The position numbers and the translations under genes are program-made. The notes below the pieces were generated by a model that did not search any database, was not told the origin of the DNA, and was given only the letters and a program-made list of their open reading frames with translations. DNA of 64,000 nt from Nitrospirota bacterium (GTDB taxonomy: Bacteria > Nitrospirota > JACRHJ01), in the NCBI GenBank assembly GCA_021784575.1, contig JAJYHX010000001.1:23280-87279 (forward strand), read 5' to 3'. Position 1 is the stretch's first letter, and every line of letters starts with the position of its first letter. Below are positions 2,303-34,236 of this stretch, piece by piece.

Positions 2303-3670
2303 CTATGCCTTGAATACTTTCTTTTTGGTGTCCCTTACCGCCGCCATGGCGTTCCTGGTGTCTATTATCATGTTCGAGTTCTCGTATATGAATTCGTAGT
2401 CGAAGTCGTTGTGATCTGTAAGTATCAACACCGCGTCGTACCTGGAGAGGTTCCTTTCGTTCAAAACGACGGAGGTCATGTCGAGCCTGTATTTCCTGAG
2501 CTTCGGTATCTTCGGGACGTACGGGTCGGAGTAATCCACCTTCGCTTCCCTGGCCATCAGGAGTTCGACAACCTTCAGCGCCGGGGACTCGCGCATGTCG
2601 TCCACGTTCTTTTTGTACGCCACCCCCAGAACCAGCACCTTTGCGCCTTTCAGCGCCTTGCCCTGGCGGTTTAAAGCCTGTGCGGTCTTCTCTATAACGT
2701 AGTAGGGCATGTAGGTTATTATCTCGCCCGCAAGCTCGATGAAGCGGGTATGGAAGTCGTACTTGCGGGCCTTCCACGTGAGGTAGAACGGGTCAATGGG
2801 GATGCAGTGCCCGCCAAGGCCCGGCCCCGGATAAAACGGCATGTAGCCGAAGGGTTTCGTGGAGGCGGCGGATATTACCTCCCAGACGTCGATGTCCATC
2901 CTGTCGAAGAGCACCTTCAGTTCGTTTACCAGCGCAATGTTTACGCTCCGGAATATGTTCTCAAGCAGTTTCGTCGCCTCGGCCACGCGGGTCGAGGATA
3001 CGGGGACGGTTCTCTTGATGATGCTTCCGTAGAGGGCGTTCGCGGCCTTCAGGCACCTGCCGGTATATCCGCCGACGACCTTGGGTATGGTGGAGGTATT
3101 GAAGCTCCCGTTATTGGGGTCCTCGCGCTCCGGGGAAAACGCCAGGAAAAAGTCCCGGCCCGCATAAAGCCCCGTCTTTTCAAGGACGGCGCGCATCTCC
3201 TCGTCCGTTGTGCCGGGATACGTGGTGGATTCGAGTATCACGAGCTGTCCCTCTCTTAGTGTCCGTGCCGCCGCCTCGGCGGAGTTCAGGACGTATGAGA
3301 GGTCCGGTTCCCTGTATTCGTTCAACGGCGTGGGGACACAGATGATAACGCAGTCCACCTCGCCGAGCCTTTCAAAATCTGCGGTTGCGGAAAACCTTCC
3401 TGAGGCGGCAATACCGGCGACGGAGGCGTCGGAGATATGTTTTATGTAGCTTTTCCCGGCCGCGAGGCGGTCTATTTTTTCCATGTCGTTGTCAAAACCC
3501 ATTACCGGGAACCCCGCCCCGGCAAAGGCCTGGACAAGCGGCAGGCCGACGTATCCCAGACCGATTACACCCACCTTTGCGCGGCGTGTCTCGATTTTTT
3601 CAAGCAGGGTCTCGAAAATATCCGCCGTTTTAAGCTTCCCGCTCTCGTTATTTTCTGTAAGAGTTTCCAT
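2303..3670 (-). CDS. UDP-N-acetyl-D-glucosamine/UDP-sugar 6-dehydrogenase (nucleotide-sugar dehydrogenase family, WbpA/WecC-like).
   Basis: 'KVGVIGLGYVGLPLVQAFAGAGF' Rossmann motif and catalytic 'GGHCIPIDP'. The start was moved to METLTENN (ATG at 3670), because the 76-aa N-terminal extension in the ORF track has no counterpart in this enzyme family. Confidence 0.85.
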   Translation of the reverse strand: METLTENNESGKLKTADIFETLLEKIETRRAKVGVIGLGYVGLPLVQAFAGAGFPVMGFDNDMEKIDRLAAGKSYIKHISDASVAGIAASGRFSATADFERLGEVDCVIICVPTPLNEYREPDLSYVLNSAEAAARTLREGQLVILESTTYPGTTDEEMRAVLEKTGLYAGRDFFLAFSPEREDPNNGSFNTSTIPKVVGGYTGRCLKAANALYGSIIKRTVPVSSTRVAEATKLLENIFRSVNIALVNELKVLFDRMDIDVWEVISAASTKPFGYMPFYPGPGLGGHCIPIDPFYLTWKARKYDFHTRFIELAGEIITYMPYYVIEKTAQALNRQGKALKGAKVLVLGVAYKKNVDDMRESPALKVVELLMAREAKVDYSDPYVPKIPKLRKYRLDMTSVVLNERNLSRYDAVLILTDHNDFDYEFIYENSNMIIDTRNAMAAVRDTKKKVFKA

Positions 3671-3943
3671 TTTGACCCCCAAGGTAAATTTAAATCGTTT
3701 TCCCGGGCCGAGCCTCTCTTTTTTCCCGACAAGCGCAATCCTCGAAAGACAAGGAGCCGGAGGGACAGGGCCATGAGCATAGGCGTCAGACATGGGACGG
3801 TGTCGGGCACCCGGTACAAATTGCCTTCCCCTCCAGCTTCTCCTCTCCGTCCGCGGTAAAGACGATTTCCTGCCCGCCCCGCGAACGGATTTTTTCAAGC
3901 AGGCCTCCGCGCATGTTTTTGACCGCCTCTCCCTGCCGCCGCG

Positions 3944-4903
3944 TCATGTTCGCAAAACCAGACGCGCCGCGTTCTCACCGGAGACGCTCCGCATGACGTC
4001 CGCCGGGAGCCTGAGCCTCTCAAGGAGCTTCCTTTGGCCAAGGAAGAAGTTGTCCGTCCCGTAAAGTATCCTTTCGGAGTGCCTTGTAATGAACTCCCGC
4101 GCAAAGGCCGGGTCTCTCGTCATGGCGCGAAAACCCGATACGCCGGATAAATCGGCATGAAGGTTTTTATATTCCTCCATCAGCCGGACGGTTATTCCTC
4201 CCGCGATAACCGTGCCGCGCGGCAGGAGGCCGTCCACGCCGCCTTCAAGGGAAATGCCCTCCCAGAAAAGCGGCCCATGCCCTATGAACTTTATGTTCGG
4301 GAACTGCTGAAGACGGCTCTCAAGCGCCGCGAAATCCGTCATGTATCCAGGAAACTGGCGGCGCATTTTTTCTTTTTTCTCCCTCATGGGCGCATAGATT
4401 TTTCCCAGGAACGAGACCGCCTTCCTGGGATAGCCGCGGTATCTCGGGGTGTTCAGCATCTTCGCCATAAGCTTCTCGAAATTATCAGCGCCTGCCGCGG
4501 CATAACGCTCGCCCGCGCTTTCCATGTGAAACACAAGCGGCATACCCAGGGCGTTTACCTTCTCCAGCAGCCGGTCGAGTTTCGGCGAATCCCAGGGGAG
4601 TTTTGTTTTCAGCTCTCCGCAGCCGCATATTCCCTTGTCCACCCATGCCATGAACCTCTCCGCCGCATCGTCCGCCTCAGGGTCAGGCGCATACATCGGG
4701 CATACCCTTTCAGGGTGTTTCCGGTATGCCTCAAACACGTCCTCCACCGGCAGGCGAAGGTATACCGGGGTTGCCGGGTTTGACTCTTCCCAGGTCAAAA
4801 GCCAGCACTTGCCGAGCCGCTCCCTGTTCAGGTAGGAAATTATACCCTCGGCGTCCAGGCCCCTGAAATTCACGTGCATGTGCGAATCGATGTCCAAGCG
4901 CAA
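3944..4903 (-). CDS. Amidohydrolase-2 family (TIM-barrel metal-dependent hydrolase).
   Basis: N-terminal 'LDIDSHMHV' (DxHxH metal motif) and overall length and architecture. Confidence 0.55.
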   Translation of the reverse strand: MRLDIDSHMHVNFRGLDAEGIISYLNRERLGKCWLLTWEESNPATPVYLRLPVEDVFEAYRKHPERVCPMYAPDPEADDAAERFMAWVDKGICGCGELKTKLPWDSPKLDRLLEKVNALGMPLVFHMESAGERYAAAGADNFEKLMAKMLNTPRYRGYPRKAVSFLGKIYAPMREKKEKMRRQFPGYMTDFAALESRLQQFPNIKFIGHGPLFWEGISLEGGVDGLLPRGTVIAGGITVRLMEEYKNLHADLSGVSGFRAMTRDPAFAREFITRHSERILYGTDNFFLGQRKLLERLRLPADVMRSVSGENAARLVLRT

Positions 4904-4998: not shown

Positions 4999-7113
4999 CT
5001 AAGCGCCGGACTTTGTCCTCTTTGTGCCGATATAGTCGGAATAGTTGTAGTGATAGTAGTAATCCACGGATCGGATAGCCATATCGTTCAGGACCACGCC
5101 CAGTATTTCCGCCTTTATGGTATCCATGTTCTTTTTTATTTTATGCACGGCGTCCTTTATCGTCTTGCCGCTCCGGACGACAAGCACGACTCCGTCCGAA
5201 AGCGGCGTGAGGAGCGAGGCGTCCGCGATGCCGAGATAAGGCGGGCAGTCGATAAGCACCCTGTCGAACTGCTCCCTCAGGCCCGTCATCAGGTTGAACA
5301 TGGCCGTTGAACCCAGCATCTCTCCGGGATTTGAGTAAAGCGGCCCGGAAGGGATGAAGCTCAGGTTTGGTATCTTCGTCTTCCTCAAGACATCCGCCAG
5401 ATCCGCCTTTTTTGTAATGAGACTCGACAGGCCCCTTGTGTTCGGCACTTCAAAGGCCTTGTGCAGTCTGGGTCTGCGCATGTCGCCGTCTATGAGAAGT
5501 ATCCTCTCCCCGGCGGCGGCCATTATCGAGGCGAGGTTCACGGAGACCGTTGATTTTCCCTCTCCGTGCATCGCGCTGCATACCTGGATGACACGGGGAC
5601 TGCGGTTCTGTCTTGAGAGCAGGATGTTGCTTCTTATCGTTCTGAATGATTCCGCCATCGGGGATATCGGGTCGATCACCGCGTCGATATTCTCAGGCTT
5701 TTTGTCGTCCTGCCGGGAAGACTTCGGGACAACTCCAAGCATCGGCACGCCAAGATTTTCTTCAAGCTCCTCAGGCGACGTGTAGGTATTGTCCATGTGT
5801 TCGCTTACCAGGGCAAAACCAATCCCGGTAAACAGCCCCAGAGCTACTCCCAGCAGCATGTTAAGGACTTTTTTCGGCCTTGCCGGGATTTTGGGCGGCG
5901 TGGCGCCGTCTATCAGCTGCACGCTGCTGACGTTGATGGTGCCCATGATATTTGTTTCCTGGGCCTTCTTGAGCACCTGCCCATAGATTTCTTTTGCGCC
6001 CTCGACGTCCTGTTTTCTGAGATCGTATTCCGCAGAGCTTCTGTCGTAGCTCATCGCCTCCGATTTCTGGCGGTTGAAGGCGCCCCTGAGACTTTGCTCT
6101 TCGCGGCGGGCCTCGTCGTAGTCGTTTTTTATCCCGTCGGCCACCAGCTTCACCTCGCCGTTTATCTGTTTCTTTATCTGCTTCATCTCGTTCGCAAGGC
6201 GTATCATTACCGGATGTTTATCGCCGTATTTTTTAGATTTTTCCGCCATGTCCTTGGAGATCATGGTCTCCTGGGACTGGAGGTCCTGTATCACCTTGTT
6301 GTTTAATACGTCCGGAAGACTCATCAATCCGTCGGGCACGGACGAAAGCTTCATTACCTGCTGGTATTTTATTTCCGCCTGGTATCGTCTCGCCTCTGCG
6401 GACAGGACTTTCGCGTTGAGGTCGTTCAATGCGGCGAGGGTTACATTTGAACTGCGGTCCCCGCCTATAATCCTCTCCGAGCGCTTGAAATTCTCCAGCG
6501 AATAGGCGCTTTCGTCCATCCGCGCCTTTATCTTATCCAACTCGCCGTCCAGCCACGCCATGTAGCTCCTGGCTGGAGCCGTCCTCATGTCTATGTTCTG
6601 CTCTATGAATGCCTGCACGGTCTCGTTGGCGACCCGGGCGGCAAGTTCAGGGTTTTTCGCCTCGTAACTTACATTGACCAAGTCGCTGTTCTTCACCGTC
6701 TCCACGGTAAGACGCTTCTCGAAAGCCTTTATCGCGTTTCCCATCGACGGGACTTTGCCGGAATTTCCTTTCCACGGCAGGCCAAGGGAAAAAAAGGATT
6801 TTCCCCTACGCTCAGGCCTGTCCAGATGGAGTTTTTCAATAACCTTCCTGGCTATGACTTCGCTTTTTATTATGTTCACCTGCGTCTGGAGATATGACGC
6901 CATGTCCATCTGGTTCTCTATCTGCTGGTTCTGGATATTGAACTGCAAGTTCGGCGGCTCTATATAGACCTGGGCAGTCGCCTTGTATACCGGCGTCATT
7001 GTGAAAGTTACCGCCGCAACCGCAAGAACAAACAACGCGAAGACGGCCGCGACGGAAATCCGCCGCTTGCTCAGTATCATCAGGTAATCTCGAACGCCCA
7101 AGTCTTCCCTCAT
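4999..7113 (-). CDS. Polysaccharide co-polymerase and tyrosine autokinase (Wzc/BY-kinase-like).
   Basis: N-terminal transmembrane segment, long coiled-coil periplasmic region, Walker A 'HGEGKSTVSVNLA', 'LLIDGDMRRPRLH' and a C-terminal tyrosine cluster 'VDYYYHYNYSDYIG'. Confidence 0.85.
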   Translation of the reverse strand: MREDLGVRDYLMILSKRRISVAAVFALFVLAVAAVTFTMTPVYKATAQVYIEPPNLQFNIQNQQIENQMDMASYLQTQVNIIKSEVIARKVIEKLHLDRPERRGKSFFSLGLPWKGNSGKVPSMGNAIKAFEKRLTVETVKNSDLVNVSYEAKNPELAARVANETVQAFIEQNIDMRTAPARSYMAWLDGELDKIKARMDESAYSLENFKRSERIIGGDRSSNVTLAALNDLNAKVLSAEARRYQAEIKYQQVMKLSSVPDGLMSLPDVLNNKVIQDLQSQETMISKDMAEKSKKYGDKHPVMIRLANEMKQIKKQINGEVKLVADGIKNDYDEARREEQSLRGAFNRQKSEAMSYDRSSAEYDLRKQDVEGAKEIYGQVLKKAQETNIMGTINVSSVQLIDGATPPKIPARPKKVLNMLLGVALGLFTGIGFALVSEHMDNTYTSPEELEENLGVPMLGVVPKSSRQDDKKPENIDAVIDPISPMAESFRTIRSNILLSRQNRSPRVIQVCSAMHGEGKSTVSVNLASIMAAAGERILLIDGDMRRPRLHKAFEVPNTRGLSSLITKKADLADVLRKTKIPNLSFIPSGPLYSNPGEMLGSTAMFNLMTGLREQFDRVLIDCPPYLGIADASLLTPLSDGVVLVVRSGKTIKDAVHKIKKNMDTIKAEILGVVLNDMAIRSVDYYYHYNYSDYIGTKRTKSGA

Positions 7114-7135
7114 AATGTGTCCCCTTCCGGTTTGA

Positions 7136-8044
7136 TTAAAAGAAGCTCTCAGGCACCGATACCACGTCGTCCGGCTGTAGCTGGAAATCCATTCCGACCT
7201 TTATTTTTTTGTCTTTGCCGTCTATTTTTCTTATCAATGTCGTCCTGCCTGGGGCGGCCTTGTCGGTAAGCCCCTGTGCCATGGCTATCGCCTGAATCAC
7301 GGTGGTTCCTTCTTTAAATTTATATGCGCCGGGCATCTTTACCTCTCCTGTCACGTAAATTAGTCCGCTCTTTGTAACGAATATGTTATCGCCGTCCTTA
7401 ACGTAGAGGTTTTCGGCCATGTTCCCTTTTTCCATCAGCTCTTTCAGGTTCAGCGTAATGTATGTGCTGCCCGGGCCGGGCCCTGATGCCTTTGCTCCAT
7501 TCGCCGTCTCCGGCCCTGCAATGGGCGCGGTTTCGCCCTTTTGGCTTGCGGCGGGGAGCGCATCCGGCGCGCCGGCGTCCGTGGCGGTATTTTTTGTTTT
7601 CCTTTTTATGACTATGCGGTTTCCGGCCTTGTCTGTAAGCCCGCCCGCCTTGGAGATTATGTCGAGGACCGTCGCATTCGAGGTCAGCGTATATACCCCG
7701 GGTCTTGCTACCTCGCCCAGGATGGTAACCTGCTTGCTTTTATATTCCTTGACAAAAACGGTGACGTGCGGGTCGATAATATATCCTTGGGCAAGCTTTT
7801 GGTCTATTCTCTGTTCCGCCTCGCCGGGCGTCATTCCCGCCACTTTTATTTTGCCTATCAACGGCACGCTGATTATCCCGTTGCCGCTTATCCTGGCCGT
7901 CGTCGTAAGGTCGTCGTTTTCGTATACCGTAATTTTAAGCAGATCGCCCGGGCCCAACATGTAATCCTGGGCCATTGCATAGTTCCCGGCCGTTAGCACT
8001 CCCGCCAGGGCAGCAAAGACGAATAAGACATATATCCTCTTCAT
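7136..8044 (-). CDS. Outer-membrane polysaccharide export protein (Wza-like; Poly_export plus SLBB domains).
   Basis: Signal peptide 'MKRIYVLFVFAALAGVLTAGNYAMA', 'GPGDLLKITVYE', and the repeated SLBB-like 'GEVARPGVYTL...' / 'GEVKMPGAYKF...' segments. The start was moved to ATG at 8044, dropping a 74-aa extension. Confidence 0.8.
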   Translation of the reverse strand: MKRIYVLFVFAALAGVLTAGNYAMAQDYMLGPGDLLKITVYENDDLTTTARISGNGIISVPLIGKIKVAGMTPGEAEQRIDQKLAQGYIIDPHVTVFVKEYKSKQVTILGEVARPGVYTLTSNATVLDIISKAGGLTDKAGNRIVIKRKTKNTATDAGAPDALPAASQKGETAPIAGPETANGAKASGPGPGSTYITLNLKELMEKGNMAENLYVKDGDNIFVTKSGLIYVTGEVKMPGAYKFKEGTTVIQAIAMAQGLTDKAAPGRTTLIRKIDGKDKKIKVGMDFQLQPDDVVSVPESFF

Positions 8045-20478: not shown

Positions 20479-20682
20479 CTAAGCCTTTTTCGCGTATTTT
20501 TTGTTGAACCGCTCGACCCGTCCCTCGGTGTCCATGAGCTTCTGCTTGCCCGTGAAGAACGGGTGGCAGGCGGAGCAGACCTCGACGGAGACGCTCTTCC
20601 TGGTGGAGCGGGTTTCCATCACGTTCCCGCATGCGCATTTTATCTTGACCGGCTCGTATTTCGGATGTATGCCTTCCTTCAT
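20479..20682 (-). CDS. rpmE: 50S ribosomal protein L31.
   Basis: 'MKEGIHPKY...CACG...[13 protein letters not shown]'. Confidence 0.9.
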
Positions 20683-20890: not shown

Positions 20891-21298
20891 TTACCCGAGG
20901 AAGCGCCTGAGCCGGTTGGCTAACTTTAATTTGTTTTTCGTTTCGCATTCCCATACTACAAGCGCCTTCCAGCCGTTCGCCTTTAGGCTTCGCATTTGTT
21001 CGGCATCGCGCTCCACGTTACGTGCTAGCTTGCTCTGCCAAAAAGATACGTTCGATTGCGGCATGGTCGCTCGTTTGCATCCTTTGTGTTGATGCCAAAA
21101 ACAGCCGTGCACAAATATCGCCTTTCGTTTGCCGATGAAAACTATATCGGGTTCCCCCGGCAATTCTTCCCGATGAAGCCGGTACCGATAGCCTAATTCA
21201 TACACAATTTTGCGCACAGATATTTCCGGTTGTGTATCACGGCTGTGAACTGCACGCATGTTGGCGCTGCGGCGTTCGCTGGAGATTGTGTCCGTCAT
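20891..21298 (-). CDS. vsr: Very-short-patch-repair endonuclease.
   Basis: 'RDTQPEI..R...LGYRYRLH...LPGEPDIVF...KAIFVHGCFWHQH..C......P..N..FW..K...N..RD......LKANGWKALVVWECE'. The start was set to the ATG at 21298, which overlaps the upstream stop as ATGA. Confidence 0.85.
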   Translation of the reverse strand: MTDTISSERRSANMRAVHSRDTQPEISVRKIVYELGYRYRLHREELPGEPDIVFIGKRKAIFVHGCFWHQHKGCKRATMPQSNVSFWQSKLARNVERDAEQMRSLKANGWKALVVWECETKNKLKLANRLRRFLG

Positions 21299-21864
21299 TC
21301 CGCGAATTTTTTCCGCAGCCACTCGAAGACTGCCCTTTGTTCATCTTGTCCGGCACGCCTGACTTGCGACAGCAGCCAAATGCCCGTCGGTTTCTCGCCC
21401 GTGATGTTCTTCGCGCCTTGATTGCAGGTCGAACAAAGCGTCCGAAGATTTGACAGATCATCTAGGCCGCCAAGGCTTTTGTCTTTGACATGGCCGACAT
21501 GGAGCCTTACCTTGCGATTGGTAGCCGGGTCAATATCGCCCGGCGTGAGTCCGCACATTTGACAAGTGAAACCGTTACGGTCAAGAACTTCTGCGCGAAG
21601 CTTAGCAGATATGCCGCGCATAAACTTCACGTCCGGCTTTTCAGGCGGCTTTTCCTTCAGAATATATTCGCCCGGTTTAAGCGCCGTACTGTCATTGTGC
21701 GTGATTATCGGCCAACCCTCTTCATCACGTAATTCACGCACTCGACGTGCCCATTCACTTACGCCCGTACCTGCGGCGTTGCGAAGCTGAATTGATGTAA
21801 CTACCTGTCCGATATGAGCAAGCAGAAATTGTCTGATTAACTCCTTTGATCCGGGCTTACGCAT
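21295..21864 (-). CDS. HNH-family endonuclease with a ~100-aa N-terminal domain. Putative restriction endonuclease of the adjacent methyltransferase.
   Basis: 'CQMCG...HVGHVKDKSLGGLDDLSNLRTLCSTCN' HNH/His-Me finger. The gene overlaps the methyltransferase end by 8 nt and is overlapped by the vsr start. Confidence 0.7.
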   Translation of the reverse strand: MRKPGSKELIRQFLLAHIGQVVTSIQLRNAAGTGVSEWARRVRELRDEEGWPIITHNDSTALKPGEYILKEKPPEKPDVKFMRGISAKLRAEVLDRNGFTCQMCGLTPGDIDPATNRKVRLHVGHVKDKSLGGLDDLSNLRTLCSTCNQGAKNITGEKPTGIWLLSQVRRAGQDEQRAVFEWLRKKFAE

Positions 21865-22600
21865 TTAAGCGCCGCATCGCTGATTCTTGTTCCAAGTCCG
21901 ACATATATTGTAACAACTGCAACAATTGTTCTCCGATGAGTCGTGTATAGGCGGGCGGGATGGCTTCATTAATTTCGTTCTTGCTCATCCAGTCTATGCC
22001 CATCGCCTCTCGCGCAGCAGCGACTGTGCAGTTGCCGCCGCCTGTGACCTGAACAAAATCAACCCATTCGTTCGTCTTGCCGTAATGCGATTTTCGCTTA
22101 TCAAAAGTATGCACCTTCGGGTGCTTGCCGTGCGGCGGCGTTATTATTGAAAAATTTGCCTCAAACAGCCGATGCCGAAGCACGCGAAGACCGGGGAACA
22201 TTGTCCCGCATAAAACGACAGGCTCAGTTAAGGGTGCGCCTTCAACATTTTCTATTATATAAGGAAGTCCCGATTGAATAAGCAAGTCCCGCACTGGCTC
22301 AATTAGGCGCGGCCACTCATCGGCATTGCCGTTTCGTTTGGCAAGGTCTGAGTACGATTGACAAGGCGGTGATGCATGAACGGCGTCGAAAGAGGCTATG
22401 AATTTCGGATCAAGCGTGAGTGCGTCCGCCTGTATGAAAGCGAAAGGATAATTCGGTTGCGGATCAATATCGACTCCAACTACTTCAAAGCCTGCTTGGC
22501 TGTAACCTTTTCCGGCACCTCCAGCACAGCAAAAAAGATCAAGGAGCCGAAACCTCTTCTGTTTAGGTATTTTTTTCTTCGGTCTAAATATCAGGCTCAT
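21857..22600 (-). CDS. DNA (cytosine-5)-methyltransferase, unusually short at 247 aa.
   Basis: Motif I 'LDLFCCAGGAGKGY', motif IV 'ASPPCQSYS', motif VI 'YIIENV', motif VIII 'LRHRLF' and motif X-like 'EINEAIPPAYTRLIGEQL'. There is almost no target-recognition region between motifs VIII and IX/X. Confidence 0.8.
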   Translation of the reverse strand: MSLIFRPKKKIPKQKRFRLLDLFCCAGGAGKGYSQAGFEVVGVDIDPQPNYPFAFIQADALTLDPKFIASFDAVHASPPCQSYSDLAKRNGNADEWPRLIEPVRDLLIQSGLPYIIENVEGAPLTEPVVLCGTMFPGLRVLRHRLFEANFSIITPPHGKHPKVHTFDKRKSHYGKTNEWVDFVQVTGGGNCTVAAAREAMGIDWMSKNEINEAIPPAYTRLIGEQLLQLLQYMSDLEQESAMRRLNA

Positions 22601-22650: not shown

Positions 22651-25140
22651 TTATTCGGCCTCCCCGCCTTCCGCCTCCGGGAGCGCGCCGCCCCCGTTCT
22701 CATCTTTTTCCGCGAGCTTGGCGATGCTAACCACCTTGTCGCCTTCGCCCACGTCGAGGAACTTCACGCCCTTTGTGTTGCGACCAATGACGGAGACGCC
22801 CTTGACGGGCATACGGAGGATTTTGCCGTTCGTCGTAACCATCATCACTTCGTCGGAGTCGTCCACGGCGGCGATGCCTATGACGTTGCCGTTCCTGCCG
22901 CCGGTCTTGATATTGATAAGCCCCATGCCGCCCCTGGCCTGGGTGCGGTATTCGCTGGCCTTCGTGCGCTTGCCGAAGCCCGTCTCCGTGGCGCATAGGA
23001 TGGTCTCGTTCTCGCTTACGATAAGCTCCATCCCGACCACTTCGTCGTCTTTTTTAAGCTTAATCCCGCGCACGCCCGTTGCGCCCCGGCCCATGTCCCG
23101 CACGTCCGATTCCGCGAAGCGTATCGCCATGCCCGCTTTTGTCGCCAGCAGGACTTCGTCCTTCCCGCTTGTCTGCCGAACGTCTATTAGCCTGTCGCCT
23201 TCTTTCAGGTTAATGGCGATAATCCCTGCCGCGCGCGGGTTGCCGTATGCGGAGAGCGCGGTCTTCTTGACCGTCCCGCCGGACGTGGCCATGACAAGGA
23301 ACGCGTCGTCCGTAAATTCCCTCACCGGCAGGACAGCCGTCACCTGCTCGTCCGAGGACTTGTTGATGAGGTTTACCATAGCCTTGCCGCGTGCCGTTCT
23401 TCCGGCCTCCGGCACCTGGTATACCTTCATCCAGTAGACCCGGCCCTTGTCCGTGAAGAACAGGAGGTAGTCGTGCGTGGAGGCGGTAAAAAGCCTTTCG
23501 ACGAAGTCCTCTTCCTTCGTCTCCATGCCTATCTTTCCCTTGCCGCCTCTCCTCTGGCTTCTGTAGAGTGTAAGCGGGTTTCTCTTTATGTAGCCCGTGT
23601 GCGAGATGGTAATGACCATCTCCTCTTCGGCGATAAGGTCTTCGACGGTCAGTTCCGTGGACTCTTCCGCAATCTCCGTCCTGCGGTTGTCCCCGTAGGC
23701 CTCTTTTATCTTGAGGATTTCCTCCCTGATTATCTCCATAACCATCCTGTCGGAGGCAAGAACGGATTTCAGATATTCGATTAGCTTCAGGGTTTCTTTG
23801 TAGTCCGCGATTATCTTGTCGCGCTCAAGGCCCGTGAGGCGCTGGAGCTTCATATCGAGGATGGCCTGGGCCTGGATCTCGCTGAGGCCGAACTTCACCG
23901 TCAGGCCGTTCCTGGCCTCCTCCGGGCTGGCCGCGGCGCGGATAAGCTTGATTACGGCATCAAGGTTATCGAGCGCTATTTTGAGGCCTTCCAGTATGTG
24001 GGCCTTCTCTTCGGCCTTCCTAAGCTCGAAGCGCGTCCGGCGTATAACAATCTCCTTCCGGTGCGCGATGAAGAGCGTCAGCATCTGGCGGAGGTCGAGG
24101 ACGCGCGGCTGGTTGTTCACGAGCGCCAGCATGATTACGCCGAAGGTGGACTGCATCGCCGTGAACTTGTACAGCTGGTTCAGTATAACGGACGCGATTT
24201 CGCCGCGTTTAAGCTCCAGGACGATTCTCATGCCGTCCCTGTCGGACTCGTCCCTGATGTCGGAGACGCCGGAGATCTTCTTATCCCGCACGAGCTCGGC
24301 TATTTTCTCAATCAGCCGCGCCTTGTTCACCTGATAGGGAAGCTCGGTGATTATTATCGCCTCCCTGTCTCCCTTGTCCATCGGGACAATCTCGGCGCGC
24401 GCGCGCACCTGTATCGACCCGCGCCCGTGCATGTAGGCTTCTTCGATCCCGCGCCTGCCGTAGATTATGCCCGCGGTCGGGAAGTCCGGGCCTTTTATCG
24501 CCTTCATAAGCTCGAAGACGGTCGCCTTCGGGTTGTCGATGAGCATCAGGACGCCGTCGGACACCTCGCGCAGGTTGTGCGGCGGGATGTTCGTGGCCAT
24601 GCCGACCGCGATGCCCGTGGAGCCGTTTATCAGCAGGTTCGGGATGCGCGCGGGGAGCACCGTCGGCTCAAACATGGATTCGTCGTAGTTCGGCGCGAAG
24701 TCCACCGTCTCTTTTTCGATGTCGGAGAGCATCTCGTCCGTTATGCGCTCCATCCGCACCTCGGTATACCTCATCGCGGCGGGCGGGTCTCCGTCCACGG
24801 AGCCGAAGTTCCCCTGGCCGTCCACGAGCGGATAGCGCATGGAGAAGTCCTGCGCGAGCCGGACAATCGTGTCGTATACCGCGGCATCGCCGTGCGGGTG
24901 GTATTTGCCTATCACGTCGCCGACGACGCGGGCGGATTTCTTGTAAGGCTTGCCGCGCGTGAGGCCAAGCTCGTGCATGGCATAGAGCACGCGCCTGTGG
25001 ACGGGTTTTAAGCCGTCGCGCACGTCGGGGAGCGCACGTCCCACGATTACGCTCATCGCGTAGTCGAGGTAGGAGGTCTTCATCTCCTCTTCGATGTTTA
25101 CGGTCGGGACAAGTGATTTATTTTCGTCGAGTGGAGTCAT
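22651..25140 (-). CDS. gyrA: DNA gyrase subunit A.
   Basis: 'HPHGD', 'AMRYTE' active-site Tyr region, and the C-terminal beta-pinwheel repeats. Confidence 0.95.
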
Positions 25141-25403
25141 TAAATTCCTCTGTATGCTTCTTTCCGATAGGCTATTCTATAAATAGTTATTTCTTTAATA
25201 TCCTCGTCTATCGAATACAATATCCTGAGGCGGCCAATCCTTATCCGCCAATCATTTTCATATCCCTTTAATTTGCGGGAACCTATTGGCCGGGGATGGA
25301 CCGAAAGAGTTCCAATGGCCGTCGAAACTCGCTCATAATCGGCGTTGCTTAATAATGCTATCTCTTTCTCCGCCTTTTTCGTGAGTCTTATCCTATAGCT
25401 CAC
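25140..25403 (-). CDS. RelE/ParE-superfamily type II toxin.
   Basis: 87 aa. '[14 protein letters not shown]...[50 protein letters not shown]'. Its TAA stop overlaps the gyrA ATG as TAATG. Confidence 0.75.
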
Positions 25404-25603
25404 TTCTTCAGGCCCCGCCGCCTGTCCTCTCTCTTCTTTACTTCTTCCCAGGAAACCGTCGGCTCGTTTCTCACTTCGTCAATCAGCTTCGCATCAATTA
25501 CGTCCTGCGCGAGTTCAATCAATTCCTGATAATCTTTATACGGCAGGAGCACGCTTTTCTTCCGGCCTTTTTTATCGACAACAAATTGCGGACGCATTGT
25601 CAT
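25400..25603 (-). CDS. Phd/YefM-like antitoxin.
   Basis: 'MTMRPQFVVDKKGRKKSVLLPYKDYQELIELAQDVIDAKLIDEVRNEP'. It overlaps the toxin start by 4 nt. The chosen ATG at 25603 lies 14 nt inside the gyrB 3' end. Confidence 0.55.
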   Translation of the reverse strand: MTMRPQFVVDKKGRKKSVLLPYKDYQELIELAQDVIDAKLIDEVRNEPTVSWEEVKKREDRRRGLKK

Positions 25604-25616
25604 TTTGTTACCTCTT

Positions 25617-28040
<2,424 letters not shown>

Positions 28041-28081: not shown

Positions 28082-28636
28082 TCACGAGCGGTCTATCTTC
28101 CGTTCCGGAAGGAGAACTTCCTTCAGTATCTCCTCCGCCTGCTCCCGGACGCCGCCTTTTCCGAGATTTTCCTTGCCGGCCATCTCCTCCACGTCAATCC
28201 TGACAATCTCCGTTCTTGCAAGCTTCTCCGGCAAATAACCGCCAAAGCCGCCTTCCGGCTGGTATTTCTCCATCAGAAGGCCAAAAGCGGCCATCCGTTC
28301 CGTCTCGTCCCACACTATCCGCGCCCGCCCTTTTGCGACGACGCTCCGGTATAGGTACCCGGCCTGGCACGGCTGATCCTTTGCGCGCTGAAAAGCCACC
28401 GGCAGGTCCGCTTCGAAGCAGACCCGACCATCTCTTTTTATGTCGTCTATCTTTTCGCCATCCCTTGCGGAGTGGAAGTATATCCGGCCCGCGCTGTAAG
28501 CGAAATTCAACGGTTTTATCATCGGCCTGCCGTCTTTGGCTATCGTGCCCAGGCGGCCAACCCTGCAACCTGCCGGAAGAGACTCGGCTGCCTCTTTTGA
28601 TATTTCTTTTTCCTTGCGTCTCATCTCTATCCGCAC
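28082..28636 (-). CDS. Pyridoxamine-5'-phosphate-oxidase-like FMN-binding family protein.
   Basis: Split-barrel-like pattern 'GRLGTIAKDGRPMIKPLNFAY..GRIYFHSA..GEKIDDIKRDGRVCFEAD' and length. Confidence 0.5.
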   Translation of the reverse strand: MRIEMRRKEKEISKEAAESLPAGCRVGRLGTIAKDGRPMIKPLNFAYSAGRIYFHSARDGEKIDDIKRDGRVCFEADLPVAFQRAKDQPCQAGYLYRSVVAKGRARIVWDETERMAAFGLLMEKYQPEGGFGGYLPEKLARTEIVRIDVEEMAGKENLGKGGVREQAEEILKEVLLPERKIDRS

Positions 28637-28642
28637 TGAAGG

Positions 28643-29758
28643 CTATACCCGCATCGGCATCACGACGCACTTATACGACTCGCCGCCGGCCTGGCTTATT
28701 ATGCAGGGAGATAGGTTGTCCTTTAAGAGCAGGCTTACCTTGTCCTGGTCCATAACGGAGAGCGCGTCGAGCAGGTATTTCGCGTTGAAGCCGACTTCCA
28801 GCTCCTGTCCGCCGTATTCCACCGGAAGCTCCTCCCTTGCCTCGCCTATCTCCGGGTTCTGGGAGGTAAGGGCCGCCTTTTCCTTCGACAGGACAAACTT
28901 CACGGCGTTCGTGCGCTCGCGGGAGAGAAGCGAGACGCGCCTCAGGGCCGCCGTAAGGAGCGTCTTCTCGACGGATACGGATTTGTCGTTCGACGTCGGT
29001 ATGACCTGCTCGTAGTTGGGGTAGTTGCCCTCTATCAGGCGCGTAACGAGGTAGAGCGAGCCCAGGCGGAATACGACATGGTTCTTGGAGAGCGCCATCA
29101 TAAGCTCCGTCTCTCCCTCGTCGAGGAGTTTTTTTAGTTCCGAGGCGGATTTTTTGGGTATTATGGCCGTCCCGGGGGCGGCCTTGGCGGAGATCCTGCG
29201 CTTCAGGACGGCCAGGCGATGGCCGTCCGTGCCCACCATTTCTATCTGTGAGCCGCCATCCTGCGAGGTTATGGCCATATAGATGCCGTTTAGGACATAT
29301 CTCGTGTCGTTGTCTCCGGCGGCGAAGATGGTCTTCCGTATAAGTTCGTGCATCAGGAGCGGGTCTATCGGAACAAACTCGGCCCCTTCCATCTCCGGAA
29401 GCGTCGGGAATTCCTCCCTGGCCAGACCTGTAAACCTGAATGTCGCCTTCCCGCTCTTTATCGTGGCCCAGTTGTTCTCCGCGCTCTCCACGGAGACCTC
29501 TTCCTCCGGCAGTTCCCGGACAATCTCGAAGAGCTTCCTGGCCGAAAGCGTCACCCCGCCAGGCTCCGCCACCTCCGCCTGATAGACGCCCTTAAGGCCT
29601 ATTTCGAGGTCCGTCGCGGTAATGGCGATGCCCCCGCCGCCATCGACGGTCTCTATCAGGGCATTGCTCAAAACCGGCATTGTATTGCGCCTGTCCGCCA
29701 CGGACTGCACCCTCGACAGGCCCTTGAGGAACTCTTCCTTTTTGATCAGAAATTTCAT
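28643..29758 (-). CDS. dnaN: DNA polymerase III beta sliding clamp.
   Basis: 'MKFLIKKEEFLKGLSRVQ', three-domain length, and the C-terminal 'CVVMPMRV'. Start at ATG 29758 behind an AAAGGGG RBS. Confidence 0.9.
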   Translation of the reverse strand: MKFLIKKEEFLKGLSRVQSVADRRNTMPVLSNALIETVDGGGGIAITATDLEIGLKGVYQAEVAEPGGVTLSARKLFEIVRELPEEEVSVESAENNWATIKSGKATFRFTGLAREEFPTLPEMEGAEFVPIDPLLMHELIRKTIFAAGDNDTRYVLNGIYMAITSQDGGSQIEMVGTDGHRLAVLKRRISAKAAPGTAIIPKKSASELKKLLDEGETELMMALSKNHVVFRLGSLYLVTRLIEGNYPNYEQVIPTSNDKSVSVEKTLLTAALRRVSLLSRERTNAVKFVLSKEKAALTSQNPEIGEAREELPVEYGGQELEVGFNAKYLLDALSVMDQDKVSLLLKDNLSPCIISQAGGESYKCVVMPMRV

Positions 29759-29784
29759 TGGAGCCCCTTTCTCAGATAATTTAT

Positions 29785-29882
29785 TAACCCTTTGCTTTTC
29801 TTTCACGAGAAAGAAAAGTAAAACAAAAGAAAGCAAAACCTTATGTCCGGACTTTCCTTTGTTACTTTCTTTTCTCCCGAAA
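29785..29882. repeat. Composite palindromic repeat element in the dnaN-dnaA spacer, consisting of two hairpins.
   Basis: Hairpin 1 is CTTTTCTTTC-acga-GAAAGAAAAG (29785-29808). A spacer then contains CAAAAGAAAGC. Hairpin 2 is GTTACTTTCTTTTC-tccc-GAAAAGAAAGTAAC (29851-29882), a perfect 14-bp stem. Confidence 0.8.
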
Positions 29883-29896
29883 AGAAAGTAACGACT

Positions 29897-31288
29897 TTAT
29901 CCCTTAACCGCTTTTGCCAGAGCCTCGACCTCCGCGTCGAATTTTATGTCGTTTGCGCGCCGCTCGTCCACCTGGCGGCAAGCATGGAGAACCGTGGTGT
30001 GGTCCTTGCCGCCGAACGCCTTCCCGACCTCCGGGAACGAGCCGCCTGCGACAGTCCTGCAAAGATACATCGCCACCTGCCGGGGCTGGACGAGGTTCCT
30101 GGTGCGCTTCTTGGACTTTATCTCGGATATTTTTATCTGGAAGTGGTCCGCCACGAGCTTTATTATCTCGTCGAGGCCGATTACCCGCTCCTTTTCGGCG
30201 ATGATGTCCCTTAGCACCACCCTCGCAAGCTCCAGGGTTATCTGGCGGCCCGTAAGGGATGCATATGCTCCAAGGCGAATAAGCGAACCTTCCAGTTCCC
30301 TGATATTAGACTTTATGTTGTTTGCCAGGAACATAGACACGTCATCCGGGACGGTTATCCCATCCTGCTCCGCCTTCTTGGCTACGATTGCCGCCTTTGT
30401 CTCCATGTCCGGGGGCTGAATATCCGCTATAAGACCCCACTCAAAGCGCGACCGTAGGCGTTCCTCCATGTCCGGCATCTCCTTCGGGAAGCGGTCGGAG
30501 GACAGGACAATCTGTCTGCCATATTCGTGTAACGTATTGAAAGTATGAAAAAATTCCTCCTGCGTGCGCTCCTTTCCGGCAATGAACTGTATGTCGTCTA
30601 TAACCAGAAGGTCGGTATTTCTGTATTTATTGCGAAACTCCGTCATGCGGTTATAGTGAATGGCGGTGATAAGCTCGTTCGTGAACTCCTCGGAGGTAAG
30701 AAATGTTATCCTGGTCTTTGGGGAGTGTTCCTTTATATACGCGCAGATGGCCGAAAGGAGGTGGGTCTTGCCAAGACCCACGCCCCCGTATACAAACAGG
30801 GGGTTATAGGCCCTGGCGGGGTTTTCCGCAACGGCCTTTGCCGCGGCATGGGCGAACTCGTTGGACTTGCCGACGACAAAATTACTGAATGTATATTTCG
30901 GGTTGAAACCGTGTGGTTTCCTGGCCTTCTGCTGCTCGGCCCCAGGCGCGTCACGGAGGAGAGCCGGCGGGGTTTCGTCCTTTCCGTCTCCGGCCTCCGC
31001 CCCTTCTTTGCCGTAATTCCCGCCATGGCCAAAACCCTTTGATATGTGAAACGAAAGGGCTATCTCGTCCCTTTCGAGGACCTCCTTTAAGACTCGCGTC
31101 AGAATATCGAAATAATGTTCAAGCAGCCACTCCTTGAAGAACTTGTTCGGGACGTTTAAGGCGACCCCTGTCGCGTCAATGGACTTCAGTCTTACCGGGC
31201 GAATCCAGGTATCGAAGTTCTGACGGCTTACCTCCCTCGAGATAAGCTCCTGCGCCTCAGACCAGATATCCTTTGCAACTTCCTGCAT
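29897..31288 (-). CDS. dnaA: Chromosomal replication initiator DnaA.
   Basis: 'GGVGLGKTHLL' Walker A, 'LLVIDDIQF', and the C-terminal DNA-binding 'VAMYLCR..'. Confidence 0.95.
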   Translation of the reverse strand: MQEVAKDIWSEAQELISREVSRQNFDTWIRPVRLKSIDATGVALNVPNKFFKEWLLEHYFDILTRVLKEVLERDEIALSFHISKGFGHGGNYGKEGAEAGDGKDETPPALLRDAPGAEQQKARKPHGFNPKYTFSNFVVGKSNEFAHAAAKAVAENPARAYNPLFVYGGVGLGKTHLLSAICAYIKEHSPKTRITFLTSEEFTNELITAIHYNRMTEFRNKYRNTDLLVIDDIQFIAGKERTQEEFFHTFNTLHEYGRQIVLSSDRFPKEMPDMEERLRSRFEWGLIADIQPPDMETKAAIVAKKAEQDGITVPDDVSMFLANNIKSNIRELEGSLIRLGAYASLTGRQITLELARVVLRDIIAEKERVIGLDEIIKLVADHFQIKISEIKSKKRTRNLVQPRQVAMYLCRTVAGGSFPEVGKAFGGKDHTTVLHACRQVDERRANDIKFDAEVEALAKAVKG

Positions 31289-32009
31289 AATCTTTCCTGA
31301 TAAACCAAGAAAACGTTGAGAGTCAAAAGATTTTTGGATTAAAACCGCAGGTTTAAGTTACTCACACCGTTTTCCACACCTGTTGATAAACCTGATATTA
31401 TTTTATTTTTCAATAACTTTAACCCCATAAACCTGCGTTTGGGGCGTTATTTTTCACAGGATTTAAGTCCTCGTTTTTTCATCGTTTTATAAGTTTAAAA
31501 AATGGCATCCAGCTGCTGCTTTTAATGCCTTGCTTCGTCTGCTTCGGCAAGAATGGCAGAATACGCCATATTAACAGAAGCGGGGTGTCTTAATCAAGAT
31601 ATTTCTATTATGGCCTGGAAAGTTTAAGAACCTGTTAATTCAAGAATTTTCAAAACCTTAAACGACAGTTTGAGGCCGCGCGGGAATACATAAACAACAT
31701 GTTTCCACACAGGAATTTCACGTGGTCTCCCGTTGTTTTTTTAAGGGCTTACTCTCTGTTTTCACATCTTCACAACTAATGACTATTAGTGTTACTATTT
31801 CTCTAAACTTTAAATAGGGGGATAAGGAACGAATTTTTAGCCTGAATGGTAGTGTCCTAATTTGAATTCCTTAGATAAAAAGGCCGTATTTTGACGGCAT
31901 TTTTCATTTTATGCCTTGACAAATGTAATTATTATAATTAATATAGTTTTTTAGAAGAAAATAAAAAACCCACGGATAAAGTGGGGAGCGGAGCTGCAAG
32001 TTTTTAGCC
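31289..32009. other. Putative oriC region / dnaA promoter region.
   Basis: AT-rich non-coding stretch next to dnaA. Degenerate DnaA-box-like 9-mers include TTTTCCACA (31370-31378), TGTTGATAA (31381-31389) and GTTTCCACA (31701-31709). An AT-rich DUE-like run lies at 31921-31970. Confidence 0.5.
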
Positions 32010-32132
32010 TACCTGCCGCACTTGGGGCCGATAGGCTTGGGGTTGGAGCGTGTATGGGCCTTGACCTTTACGGCGTTCTTTGCCCCGGTCTTCTTCACCC
32101 TTTCGGGACGACAGATGACCTTGGTTGCCATG
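32010..32132 (-). CDS. Candidate small basic protein (40 aa) of unknown function.
   Basis: Not in the ORF track. The ATG is preceded by GAAAGGAGAAAGAC, a strong SD 6 nt upstream. The product is 'MATKVICRPERVKKTGAKNAVKVKAHTRSNPKPIGPKCGR', and no family was recognised. Confidence 0.3.
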
Positions 32133-32185
32133 TCTTTCTCCTTTCTCGACGGCTATGGGAACCGCCGTGCCACTATACAGCGGTT

Positions 32186-32231
32186 GCCGTTAGAAAAGAA
32201 AAAGGACTCCGCCCCCCGCTATATCGGTGGG
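32186..32231 (-). terminator. Putative terminator downstream of the defence operon (possibly bidirectional).
   Basis: A GCCCCCC-gctatatc-GGTGGGC hairpin (32209-32231) is flanked by a T-run on both strands: TTTATTTTG on the plus strand and TTTTTCTTTTC on the minus strand. Confidence 0.35.
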
Positions 32232-32233
32232 CT

Positions 32234-32548
32234 TTATTTTGCCTTATATTCCTGAATAATTGCGGCCTTAACAGCATCCTGGGCCGACTTTATAGGGGGA
32301 GTATGAAGGACGGCGAAAAACCGCCTTTTTGAACTTCCCTCAATAGGCGAAGACCAAGCATAGCATTTCTTGGCAAGCGGATTGCCCTTGATATTAAACA
32401 CGTGGACAATCCCTTGCCATACAACCTTATCTTGAAAGGTTTCTGAGACGTAAACCGTATCTGCCAGCTTCGCAGTGCATCCGTGCATCCGCTCAACGGC
32501 TTCTTTTAACTGGTCTATGTTTTCGGTCATTTTGGGAATATAGGCCAA
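32234..32548 (-). CDS. Hypothetical protein (104 aa), last gene of the RHH / DUF262-DUF1524 operon.
   Basis: The ORF overlaps the end of the upstream nuclease gene. No recognisable motif, and low-GC codon usage like its neighbours. Confidence 0.4.
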   Translation of the reverse strand: MAYIPKMTENIDQLKEAVERMHGCTAKLADTVYVSETFQDKVVWQGIVHVFNIKGNPLAKKCYAWSSPIEGSSKRRFFAVLHTPPIKSAQDAVKAAIIQEYKAK

Positions 32549-34236
32549 GTTTCAATCGCCAATTTTGCCAAGTTTTTTTGCCTGTCTGTTATTTGTTCAA
32601 CGTCCCACTTATCGTAACTTGCCACCTCGGACGTGAGTAGAAAGGCTGACTCTTTTAAGACCTTTTTCTTTTCCGTAAAGGGACTATTGCCAATCATTGA
32701 GTTCTTTTTCGCCTGGAGAATAACCATATTTCCGATTCTGTTGTAATATGCCCCTGCTGTTTCAGGGTCAATTCCGGGCCATTCGTTCTTAGGGTTTTCC
32801 GGCAAAATATGCTCAAGGTTTATTACGTTTTCTTCATCGGACGGCACAAACTCAGGCTCAGGGTCGTTTTTCTTTTTTAATTCCAAGGCGCGGAGATAAT
32901 AACGTGCCCGGAACACCTGGGAAATGCGAGCATCGGCAAAGGCTGCCTCAAACATTGCATCACTCGGTACGACCTCAGACATAGCATTAGCAAGTTGTTT
33001 TGCGGTCTTTACCGTACCGCTCGCTACTTCTTGTGCCCGAAGAGCATAGTTGCGGTCAAGCAATCCACCACGCCCTCCGACAAAAAGAAATCTGACAGAC
33101 CAAAATAGAAGCATCCGAAAAGCCAGGCGTCCTTCCTCTACGGAAAAATGGCGCGATACCGCAAACAACAACGGGATAATCTGTAATACCCGAATATCCC
33201 GGTTTAAAGTGGAAATGTTTTTCCGTGTAGTTGTGCCGTATTCGTTCCATTTCTTATGGTCAGAGTTGAAAAGCGCAGCATAATCATTCGCTCCCTCCGC
33301 AAGCTCTTCCAAAAATTCGAGAGAACGGTTTTGATTGTTTACAAGCTGCTTGATTTTATCGAAAATCTCGCGTTCCTTTGTAGGCCCATATTTTGTAATT
33401 AAAAGGTGATGTAAATATGAAACCGTAGTGTCTTCTCTTTCTAAGGATTCCAGTATACCCATCATTTGGGCCCATTTTTGCTGAGCTTCTCTTATGCGGT
33501 CACCGGAATAACCGAGAAGATGATTTTTAAGCAAATCCGCCTGGGATGCTTTAAGCCCTCTATCGTTAAGAGTTTCAAACATTAAAAAAGCGTTTAAATG
33601 GTCGGGCACTCGCAATAAAATTACCTGTGCGCCAGAACGAATAAAGCGAATCCATTCAAGAAGTCGTGCGGTCTTGAGGGGTTCTTTTTGGCCAAAAGGA
33701 TCAAGAAGCTCCTGAATATATTTTGCCGCAATGTCAGATGCGGTTGTTATTCTCTTATGGGAATCCTTGGTTGGTTTTACTTTTCTGTCGGGACTGTCGG
33801 GAGAGGAGAGAATAAATTTTCGGAAAAAATCGTTATCGTCAACATTCAAGCGAAGCTGCGGGACAATATCTGTCGTTTCAATATCGGTTTTCAGCAGAAA
33901 CTCCTGTTCAATAGGAGTGGCCCTTAACTTATCTCCACTATTGAAAAAATAATCTCGGATTGCCGCTATAAGTATAGCGGTTGTAGCAAGGCGTTGTTGG
34001 CCGTCGGAAACTTCCGGTATATCCCCTTCGCCTCTCGTCAATACGATAGTTCCTAAAAAATAACTTCCCTTGTTGGCCGCTATAGCGTTAGCAAAATCGG
34101 TGAATAAATCCCTGACATGCCCTTCTTCCCACGAATATTCTCTTTGGTTAAGCGGCACGGCAAGACGGTTTTGTGCCAACACATCACCAATTCCCCTGTG
34201 TTCAAACCCGATTTCTTCAGCTGGCTGTTTTGCCAT
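32527..34236 (-). CDS. DUF262 (ParB-like, DGQQR) plus DUF1524 (His-Me/HNH-like) two-domain nuclease, i.e. GmrSD-family type IV restriction-like enzyme.
   Basis: N-terminal 'VSDGQQRLATTAILIAAI' (DUF262 DGQQR motif). C-terminal 'NLEHILPENPKNEWPG...YYNRIGNMVILQAKKNSMIGNSPF' (DUF1524-type His-Me finger). The gene is about 45% GC against a much higher GC in the surrounding genome. Confidence 0.8.
   Translation of the reverse strand: MAKQPAEEIGFEHRGIGDVLAQNRLAVPLNQREYSWEEGHVRDLFTDFANAIAANKGSYFLGTIVLTRGEGDIPEVSDGQQRLATTAILIAAIRDYFFNSGDKLRATPIEQEFLLKTDIETTDIVPQLRLNVDDNDFFRKFILSSPDSPDRKVKPTKDSHKRITTASDIAAKYIQELLDPFGQKEPLKTARLLEWIRFIRSGAQVILLRVPDHLNAFLMFETLNDRGLKASQADLLKNHLLGYSGDRIREAQQKWAQMMGILESLEREDTTVSYLHHLLITKYGPTKEREIFDKIKQLVNNQNRSLEFLEELAEGANDYAALFNSDHKKWNEYGTTTRKNISTLNRDIRVLQIIPLLFAVSRHFSVEEGRLAFRMLLFWSVRFLFVGGRGGLLDRNYALRAQEVASGTVKTAKQLANAMSEVVPSDAMFEAAFADARISQVFRARYYLRALELKKKNDPEPEFVPSDEENVINLEHILPENPKNEWPGIDPETAGAYYNRIGNMVILQAKKNSMIGNSPFTEKKKVLKESAFLLTSEVASYDKWDVEQITDRQKNLAKLAIETWPIFPK

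Follow-up and report, generated by a model that had tools for sequence, protein, structure and literature searches.

The closest described relatives of the gene pair reported here are toxin-antitoxin (TA) modules of two kinds. RelBE modules are represented by Escherichia coli RelBE, Mycobacterium tuberculosis RelBE2 (Rv2865-2866) and RelBE1, Thermus thermophilus RelE, Pyrococcus horikoshii aRelBE, and Methanocaldococcus jannaschii RelBE3. ParDE modules (RK2 ParE, Vibrio cholerae ParE2, and M. tuberculosis ParDE1) share with our toxin the superfamily fold and the name of the Pfam family. Gyrase is the target of ParE, and type II modules of the canonical kind have a promoter of their own that they autoregulate. 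The pair studied here has gyrase as its genomic neighbor: it lies between gyrB and gyrA in a stretch of 64,000 nucleotides from a Nitrospirota genome (assembly GCA_021784575.1, contig JAJYHX010000001.1), hereafter called the window, in which all positions are counted. We think it likely that the pair is a canonical RelBE addiction or defense cassette, apparently promoterless, that resides in the gyrBA operon of one clade of uncultivated Nitrospirota and is not a gyrase poison.

The pair resembles the RelBE modules in its fold (template modeling [TM] scores of 0.75 to 0.83), in the antitoxin-first gene order, in the 4-nucleotide (nt) overlap between the two genes, and in the residues at the catalytic positions, and its antitoxin is linked to them by PF18506 and, weakly, by M. 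jannaschii RelB3. It differs from them in lacking a recognizable promoter or operator of its own, in being nested between two essential genes with junctions of 13 nt and −1 nt, in having a toxin gene whose last codons appear to carry the ribosome-binding site of the next gene, and in belonging to a subfamily (at least 62% identity) known from one chromosomal slot only. It is set apart from ParDE modules by a toxin that has no sequence match to any solved ParE, has lower structural similarity to ParE, is shorter, and keeps the RelE residues. The module is ordinary and belongs to a very well-known family, and its context is unusual but explicable. We found no description of a TA pair between gyrB and gyrA in full-text searches of the literature; the only comparable report is of a 4.7-kb non-TA insertion between these two genes in Caldalkalibacillus (PMC7561548). 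What makes the locus notable is a selfish cassette that would have been resident for long inside the gyrBA operon of one clade, is apparently expressed by read-through only, and has a 3' end that seems to serve a second purpose, signaling where translation of an essential gene starts. The locus may be a useful natural example of the process by which mobile cassettes get locked into housekeeping operons.

Organization of the gyrB-gyrA junction

The genes lie on the minus strand in the order dnaA, dnaN, a PNPOx-like open reading frame (ORF), gyrB, antitoxin, toxin, and gyrA. The gyrB gene (25617-28037; 806 amino acids [aa]; NCBIfam NF011501, 1195 bits, and TIGR01059, 1006 bits) has orthologues in the loci of relatives that we number L001 to L024. 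It ends with a TAA codon at 25619-25617 and is followed by a spacer of 13 nt, AAGAGGTAACAAA (25616-25604), inside which lies the Shine-Dalgarno sequence of the antitoxin, AAGAGGT (25616-25610). The RelB-like antitoxin gene (25400-25603, 67 aa, PF18506) begins with ATG at 25603-25601, and its stop codon TGA overlaps the GTG start codon of the toxin as GTGA (25403-25400), an overlap present in 9/9 intact lineages. The toxin gene (25140-25403, 87 aa), assigned to RelE by PF05016, the PDB matches, and structure modeling with Foldseek, ends with TAA at 25142-25140 and shares one base with the gyrA ATG (25140-25138), giving TAATG. The gyrA gene (22651-25140, 829 aa; NCBIfam NF004043, 1271 bits) encodes a protein that starts with MTP..., a start common to all relatives, pair-bearing or pair-free. 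The two genes have the layout of a type II TA module, being small, adjacent, co-oriented, and co-conserved, with the antitoxin first. The window contains no second copy of the pair, and an exact-sequence look-up of the window toxin returned no record.

Direct reading of the junctions and the matches to PF05016 and PF18506 confirm two small co-oriented ORFs at the gyrB-gyrA junction as a type II pair, in agreement with the initial annotation of this DNA, which had described a TA pair with a toxin of the RelE/ParE superfamily and overlapping codons, including the TAATG overlap of toxin stop and gyrA start. Its placement of the antitoxin start 14 nt inside gyrB is rejected on the coordinates of the gyrB stop codon and the ATG and on the starts of the orthologues. 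Eight intact orthologous antitoxins begin with M-T-x-[HR]-P behind GAGG, a motif kept before every orthologous antitoxin ATG, and these include contigs in which gyrB ends 65 to 424 nt upstream. The sole upstream in-frame start codon, a TTG at 25678, would add 25 residues, and these are present in 0/8 orthologous antitoxins.

The toxin groups with RelE

The toxin matches PF05016 with 33.8 bits (cutoff, 23; E-value, 5e−8), and no NCBIfam family matches it. Because PF05016 spans the whole RelE/ParE group despite its name, ParE_toxin, we tested the RelE and ParE readings separately. A phmmer search of all PDB chains with the toxin returned only RelE proteins (Rv2866, T. thermophilus RelE, P. horikoshii aRelE, M. 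jannaschii RelE3, and M. tuberculosis RelE1). A profile built from eight toxin homologues and run against PDB chains with hmmsearch gave nine matches, all of them RelE (E-values of 1.2e−10 for 1wmi, 1.1e−8 for 2khe, 1.3e−8 for 3g5o, and 2e−3 to 4e−3 for E. coli RelE), and no ParE was among the profile matches even at an E-value of ≤1. The AlphaFold2 (AF2) model of the toxin (predicted local distance difference test score [pLDDT], 90.7) has the elements E-H-H-E-E-E-E-H and, like RelE, a short helical hairpin. In a Foldseek comparison of this model with the PDB, the ten best matches were RelE (E-values of 4e−7 to 5e−5; TM scores as given above), led by T. thermophilus RelE, P. horikoshii aRelE, M. 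tuberculosis RelBE2 and RelBE1, and E. coli RelE, with TM scores of 0.77 to 0.83 against 2khe, 1wmi, 3g5o, 9g12, and 4fxe. The first ParE (5ceg) came at rank 19 and M. tuberculosis ParDE1 at rank 48; the best E-value was 3.9e−7 for RelE versus 2.5e−4 for ParE, about 600-fold worse.

The residue pattern points the same way. Residues R43, K44, R53, R60, Y63, R76, R80, K81, Y84, and R85 are invariant in eight homologues, and position 55 holds either R or K. Alignment with hhalign to E. coli RelE pairs R53 with K52, R60 with R61, and R80 with R81, and the correspondence of Y84 to Y87 rests on the hmmsearch end-points (1-84 versus 1-87). We take K52, K54, R61, R81, and Y87 of E. coli RelE to be its catalytic positions, and ParE toxins are not known to have the RelE catalytic residues. 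The toxin combines the superfamily fold, similarity to characterized RelE proteins, and the basic residues and C-terminal tyrosine of RelE, and we found neither the closer affinity to ParE nor the absence of the RelE catalytic residues that would mark a ParE protein. We infer that the toxin is a RelE-type mRNA interferase and not a ParE, with a predicted mRNA-cleaving activity. Its wider family is large: 13,976 of 1.84 billion cluster representatives (50% identity) were reached by profile search at an E-value of ≤1e−3.

The initial annotation had raised the idea of a ParE-type gyrase poison, whose dosage would be tied to its own target by its embedding between gyrB and gyrA, and had proposed profile and structure searches to decide between a ParE-like and a RelE-like toxin. 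The position beside the gyrase genes is suggestive for this reading, the matching Pfam family carries the ParE name, and RelE and ParE have a common fold, with ParE structures further down the Foldseek list. However, the searches decided for RelE. Since the toxin sides with RelE in sequence, profile, and fold alike and keeps the RelE catalytic residues in a protein of 87 aa with a short hairpin, the link to gyrase falls. In addition, HicAB, an unrelated mRNA interferase pair, occupies the same spot in one relative (L024), and hence the slot does not select gyrase-directed toxins. We rejected the ParE identity on these grounds and regard a gyrase poison as extremely improbable. Nothing in any of our results indicates an action on gyrase, and the pair would be neither a new gyrase regulator nor a new gyrase poison.

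The antitoxin is RelB-like

The antitoxin, first taken for a Phd/YefM-like protein, falls below the thresholds of both families that would support that label: PF02604 scores 22.6 bits (cutoff, 29.8) and covers profile positions 26 to 66 only, and TIGR01552 scores 12.9 (cutoff, 20.8). It passes for the RelB-like family PF18506 (33.2 bits; cutoff, 27), aligning to positions 3 to 55 of the 62 in the profile, and its best PDB match, a weak one, is M. jannaschii RelB3 (3bpq_A). A single-sequence AF2 model shows a β-hairpin and two helices, and with its low pLDDT of 69.6 is too uncertain for a call on the DNA-binding fold.

Conservation of the pair in one chromosomal slot

A search of 5.8 billion proteins for relatives of the toxin gave only eight clusters. 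Every toxin found at ≥62% identity sits between gyrB and gyrA, and a 41%-identical homologue (P0008) lies outside this slot. Scanning the GTDB species representatives with a profile of a clade-specific GyrB insert yielded nine loci, all in Nitrospirota/Nitrospirae metagenome-assembled genomes, and a metagenome scan with the same profile added at least two further loci; the orthologues were drawn from independent assemblies (NCBI, JGI, ENA, and Logan). Nine lineages, the window among them, have an intact pair in the same slot, and the GyrB of the others is 77 to 95% identical to that of the window. The pair is intact in L001 (same contig as L018) and in L002 to L004. It is accompanied by an extra 63-aa Cys/His-rich ORF in L005, L006, and L023, preceded by a 72-aa Cys/His-rich ORF in L013 and by an extra DUF120-like ORF in L016 and L017, and separated from gyrA by a kinase gene in L007 and L008 and by an Imm32-like ORF in L012. 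A divergent copy with indels is found in L020, where gyrB has a frame break in the same assembly and sequencing error is possible. In L025 a pair with a 45%-identical toxin lies 9 nt upstream of gyrA, and a decayed HicB-like fragment lies upstream of this pair.

Among the orthologues the ratio of nonsynonymous to synonymous substitution rates (dN/dS) is 0.02 to 0.16 for the antitoxin and 0.07 to 0.20 for the toxin, with dS mostly saturated; judged by these ratios, both genes are under purifying selection and are not chance ORFs. With orthologous pairs under purifying selection found at this place in nine lineages, the synteny comparison that the initial annotation had called for rules out a recent random insertion. 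In a neighbor-joining tree of gyrB, carriers appear in every subclade and noncarriers are nested among them, a pattern that is consistent with ancestral presence plus at least three losses or replacements.

Foreign composition of the pair

The pair has a GC content of 42 to 52%, compared with 58 to 63% for gyrB and gyrA (seven lineages); for the pair reported here the values are 42 to 49% versus 59%, and the GC content at third codon positions of the window toxin is 42%, versus about 80% in the flanking genes. Relatives of the toxin at 32 to 42% identity are found on plasmids, and one at 48% identity adjoins a resolvase. Judged from its composition and relatives, the pair is a foreign and probably horizontally acquired low-GC cassette. 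The view that the pair belongs to the gyrBA transcription unit rather than to a mobile island, with which this analysis began, is right in part: no promoter or terminator was found that would isolate the pair, and its arrival was not recent. The distinction from mobile elements does not hold, as the composition is foreign and the slot also takes up other selfish or defense cassettes.

Expression of the pair and proposed coupling to gyrA

Consensus scans, which are weak evidence in Nitrospirota, detected no sigma-70-like promoter and no intrinsic terminator bracketing the pair in the window, L002, L007, or L017, as the initial annotation had expected for a pair inside the operon. An alternative is that the pair is transcribed independently, from an antitoxin-autoregulated promoter in the gyrB 3' end that would drive relBE and gyrA together. 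Canonical type II modules do autoregulate, and consensus scans are insensitive outside model organisms. However, no sigma-70-like site was found on the minus strand in 25600-25720, and the sequence upstream of the antitoxin differs wholly by lineage, consisting of the gyrB 3' end, the Cys/His-rich ORF, the DUF120 ORF, or a repeat hairpin. Lineages have in common no more than about 15 to 20 nt before the antitoxin ATG, a stretch that sets the cassette boundary and is too short to hold both a conserved promoter and an operator. The 13-nt spacer of the window leaves no room for either outside the gyrB coding sequence. The autoregulated promoter and operator of its own that a type II module would have is not seen in this pair, and we consider independent transcription unlikely.

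The 3' end of the toxin gene is unusually constant. In the five lineages in which the toxin abuts gyrA, the last 24 nt of the toxin gene (AAAGAAGCATAYAGAGGAATTTAA; with the gyrA ATG, 25138-25163 in the window) contain 1 variable site, compared with 6 to 13 in each of the other 24-nt blocks of the gene; third codon positions vary at 1/8 in the last block versus 3 to 7 of 8 elsewhere. In lineages with a toxin that does not abut gyrA, the same last block has 7 variable sites. Because the end is frozen only before gyrA and contains AGAGGA (25151-25146) at Shine-Dalgarno distance from the gyrA ATG, we read it as the translation-initiation region of gyrA. A sequestering hairpin at the toxin/gyrA junction finds no support: the consensus fold has −1 kcal/mol and no covariation, and an Rfam scan of the whole window gave no match. 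We infer that the pair is cotranscribed with gyrB and translationally coupled to gyrA.

These features could also be expected if the pair had been domesticated as a regulator, for example, to couple translation arrest to relaxation-induced transcription of the gyrase genes or to tune the ratio of GyrB to GyrA. Long retention in the slot under purifying selection, a frozen toxin 3' end that ties the pair closely to gyrA, and the lack of a recognizable promoter would all fit a host-co-opted pair. However, L014, L019, and L022 have lost the pair or have something else in its place, and L024 has lost the toxin, with gyrBA kept in each case, and the composition of the pair is still foreign. Moreover, unrelated cassettes are likewise coupled to gyrA, by ATGA in L014 and TGATG in L007; hence, this coupling is a property of the slot and not of the pair. 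Domestication appears quite improbable to us.

We instead favor a RelBE cassette that hitchhikes in the operon. A low-GC RelBE cassette would have entered the gyrB-gyrA spacer of the clade ancestor, or spread early within the clade, and stayed in the slot through much of the diversification of the clade. In the window lineage it would have been trimmed to its coding sequence, so that its ends touch both gyrase genes (13-nt spacer, GTGA, and TAATG). The relBE genes would then be expressed by read-through from gyrB on the gyrBA transcript, and gyrA would be translated from a ribosome-binding site in the last codons of the toxin gene. The RelB-like antitoxin presumably neutralizes the toxin, and free toxin, as its family membership suggests, would cleave translating mRNA in a ribosome-dependent manner. 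The element may persist as an addiction or defense hitchhiker in an essential operon.

Several observations weigh against a cassette that was simply inherited with the operon and is expressed by read-through. The relative nearest by GyrB (L014, 95.5% identity) has no pair, and hence the pair is dispensable. The low GC content has been kept despite saturated synonymous divergence between lineages, which is easier to reconcile with recurrent exchange within the clade than with plain vertical inheritance. The antitoxins of L007 and L012 are 86 to 90% identical to that of the window and the toxins only 62 to 68%, which suggests recombination inside the pair or faster evolution of the toxin on this branch. 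Given this incongruence and the presence of the same ORF of 202 to 227 aa in two subclades (see below), spread by homologous recombination via the conserved flanks is a viable alternative to ancestral residence. Finally, transcription of the pair could still start from a promoter within the 3' part of the gyrB coding sequence.

A stronger version of the hitchhiking cassette is an operon-anchored, supercoiling-responsive TA module, which would be made only when gyrB is transcribed and whose terminal toxin codons would act as the gyrA ribosome-binding site, an arrangement that would hold for whichever cassette is last in the slot. We consider this version possible but rather unlikely. If it is true, a RelE toxin would be expressed in step with gyrase gene transcription, which is sensitive to supercoiling; the cassette could not readily be lost cleanly, because gyrA must still be translated; and selfish cassettes would have a route to persist without autoregulation.

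Turnover of cassettes in the slot

The other occupants of the slot in relatives are HicAB, a PD-T4-6-like kinase gene, an Imm32-like gene, and an uncharacterized ORF of 202 to 227 aa; on the strength of these comparisons, we regard the spacer between the two gyrase genes in these Nitrospirota as a hotspot of cassette exchange. In L014 the pair is absent and a 202-aa ORF (6841-7449) takes its place, its stop codon overlapping the gyrA start as ATGA. A homologue of this ORF (6818-7501) occupies the slot of L019, which belongs to a different subclade and also has no pair. Immediately 5' of its gyrA ATG, L019 keeps ATAGAGGAATTTA, which corresponds to the final 13 nt of the toxin gene and is a remnant of a pair that was lost. 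In L022 the pair is absent and the 820-nt spacer has no convincing ORF. L024 (5060-6410) has an orphan relB-like antitoxin gene with an altered C terminus, the toxin having been lost, followed by a 173-aa unknown ORF and by HicB-HicA, a second, unrelated TA family, which ends one base before the gyrA ATG. In L007 the kinase matches PD-T4-6 anti-phage models (E-value, 1e−36), has an Arm-DNA-bind_2 N terminus, and overlaps the gyrA start with its stop codon, as noted above.

Such company raises the question of whether the pair is an anti-phage abortive-infection cassette, kept for phage defense in a spacer that acts as a small defense hotspot. The kinase, HicAB, and the Imm32-like gene as slot mates are in line with this idea, and so is the neighborhood in the window, with an islet of C5 cytosine methyltransferase, HNH, and Vsr genes and a GmrSD gene. 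However, neither toxin nor antitoxin matches a PADLOC model, and roles in defense and addiction cannot be told apart from sequence. Retention for phage defense specifically is, in our judgment, a possibility on the unlikely side. As a chromosomal site, the slot is like core-gene defense hotspots and promoterless integron cassettes in having fixed flanks and varied small, co-oriented, and apparently promoterless cassettes. Unlike in those systems, no integrase or attC-like sites were found at the gyrB-gyrA slot, and flanking repeats occur in L007 only; unlike tRNA-adjacent hotspots or integron platforms, the slot is inside an essential operon.

The repeats of L007 are two copies, 91% identical, of a palindromic G/C-rich element (3615-3736 and 4257-4359; CCCCCCT..CCCAT.AAAGGGCGAGGGGGG) that flank the pair, and the downstream element is followed by 31 nt that repeat the 3' end of gyrB in degenerate form (77%). 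Together with this copy, the repeats have the look of a trace left by an insertion where gyrB ends. As a general mode, site-specific insertion at that point was rejected, the degenerate gyrB copy being found in L007 only. A related motif, AAAGGGCGAGGGG, lies 3' of the toxin gene in L012.

Some further features of the spacers were noted. Short repeat-like sequences (TTGTAGGGGCCGTAC..GTGTCGGC and GTCATTCTGAGCGAAGCGAAGAATC) occur in L012 (1-40), L019 (6790-6830), and L022 (6799-6906), and they look like the repetitive extragenic palindromic-like intergenic repeats of environmental genomes. The ORFs of 202 to 227 aa in L014 and L019 have no Pfam or PADLOC match; they carry the string PDF..F..(8)..CEVKT, with D...E-x-K, and by eye resemble PD-(D/E)xK nucleases. 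In one subclade a conserved Cys/His-rich ORF of 60 to 72 aa directly follows gyrB (L005, 5541-5732; L013, 297-515; L024, 4868-5050; also L006 and L023). It has the pattern MYI[SA]D[EN]CPKGKG...C.YH.R..C...EC.[YF]HP.HG and no Pfam match, and it may encode a small zinc-binding protein.

Genes around gyrBA in the window

All genes described here are on the minus strand. Directly after gyrA lies a restriction-modification islet made up of a short C5 cytosine methyltransferase gene (21857-22600), an HNH endonuclease gene (21295-21864), and a Vsr mismatch endonuclease gene (20891-21322), followed by rpmE (20479-20682). The islet (20891-22600) is low in GC (49 to 52%). In L003 rpmE comes directly after gyrA, and in L001 a DUF3800 gene is found at that place.

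On the other side, the PNPOx-like ORF (28082-28636; 184 aa; PF12900, 82 bits) lies between dnaN and gyrB. In the closest relatives (L014 to L017) dnaN adjoins gyrB with a gap of 18 to 284 nt, and in the more distant L001, L002, L005, and L007 recF is located between the two genes. The dnaN gene is at 28643-29836 and dnaA at 29897-31288, and upstream of dnaA is a gene for a GmrSD-type (type IV) restriction endonuclease (32527-34236). Between the GmrSD gene and dnaA there is a gap of about 1.2 kb without a long ORF (31289-32526), in which oriC could lie.

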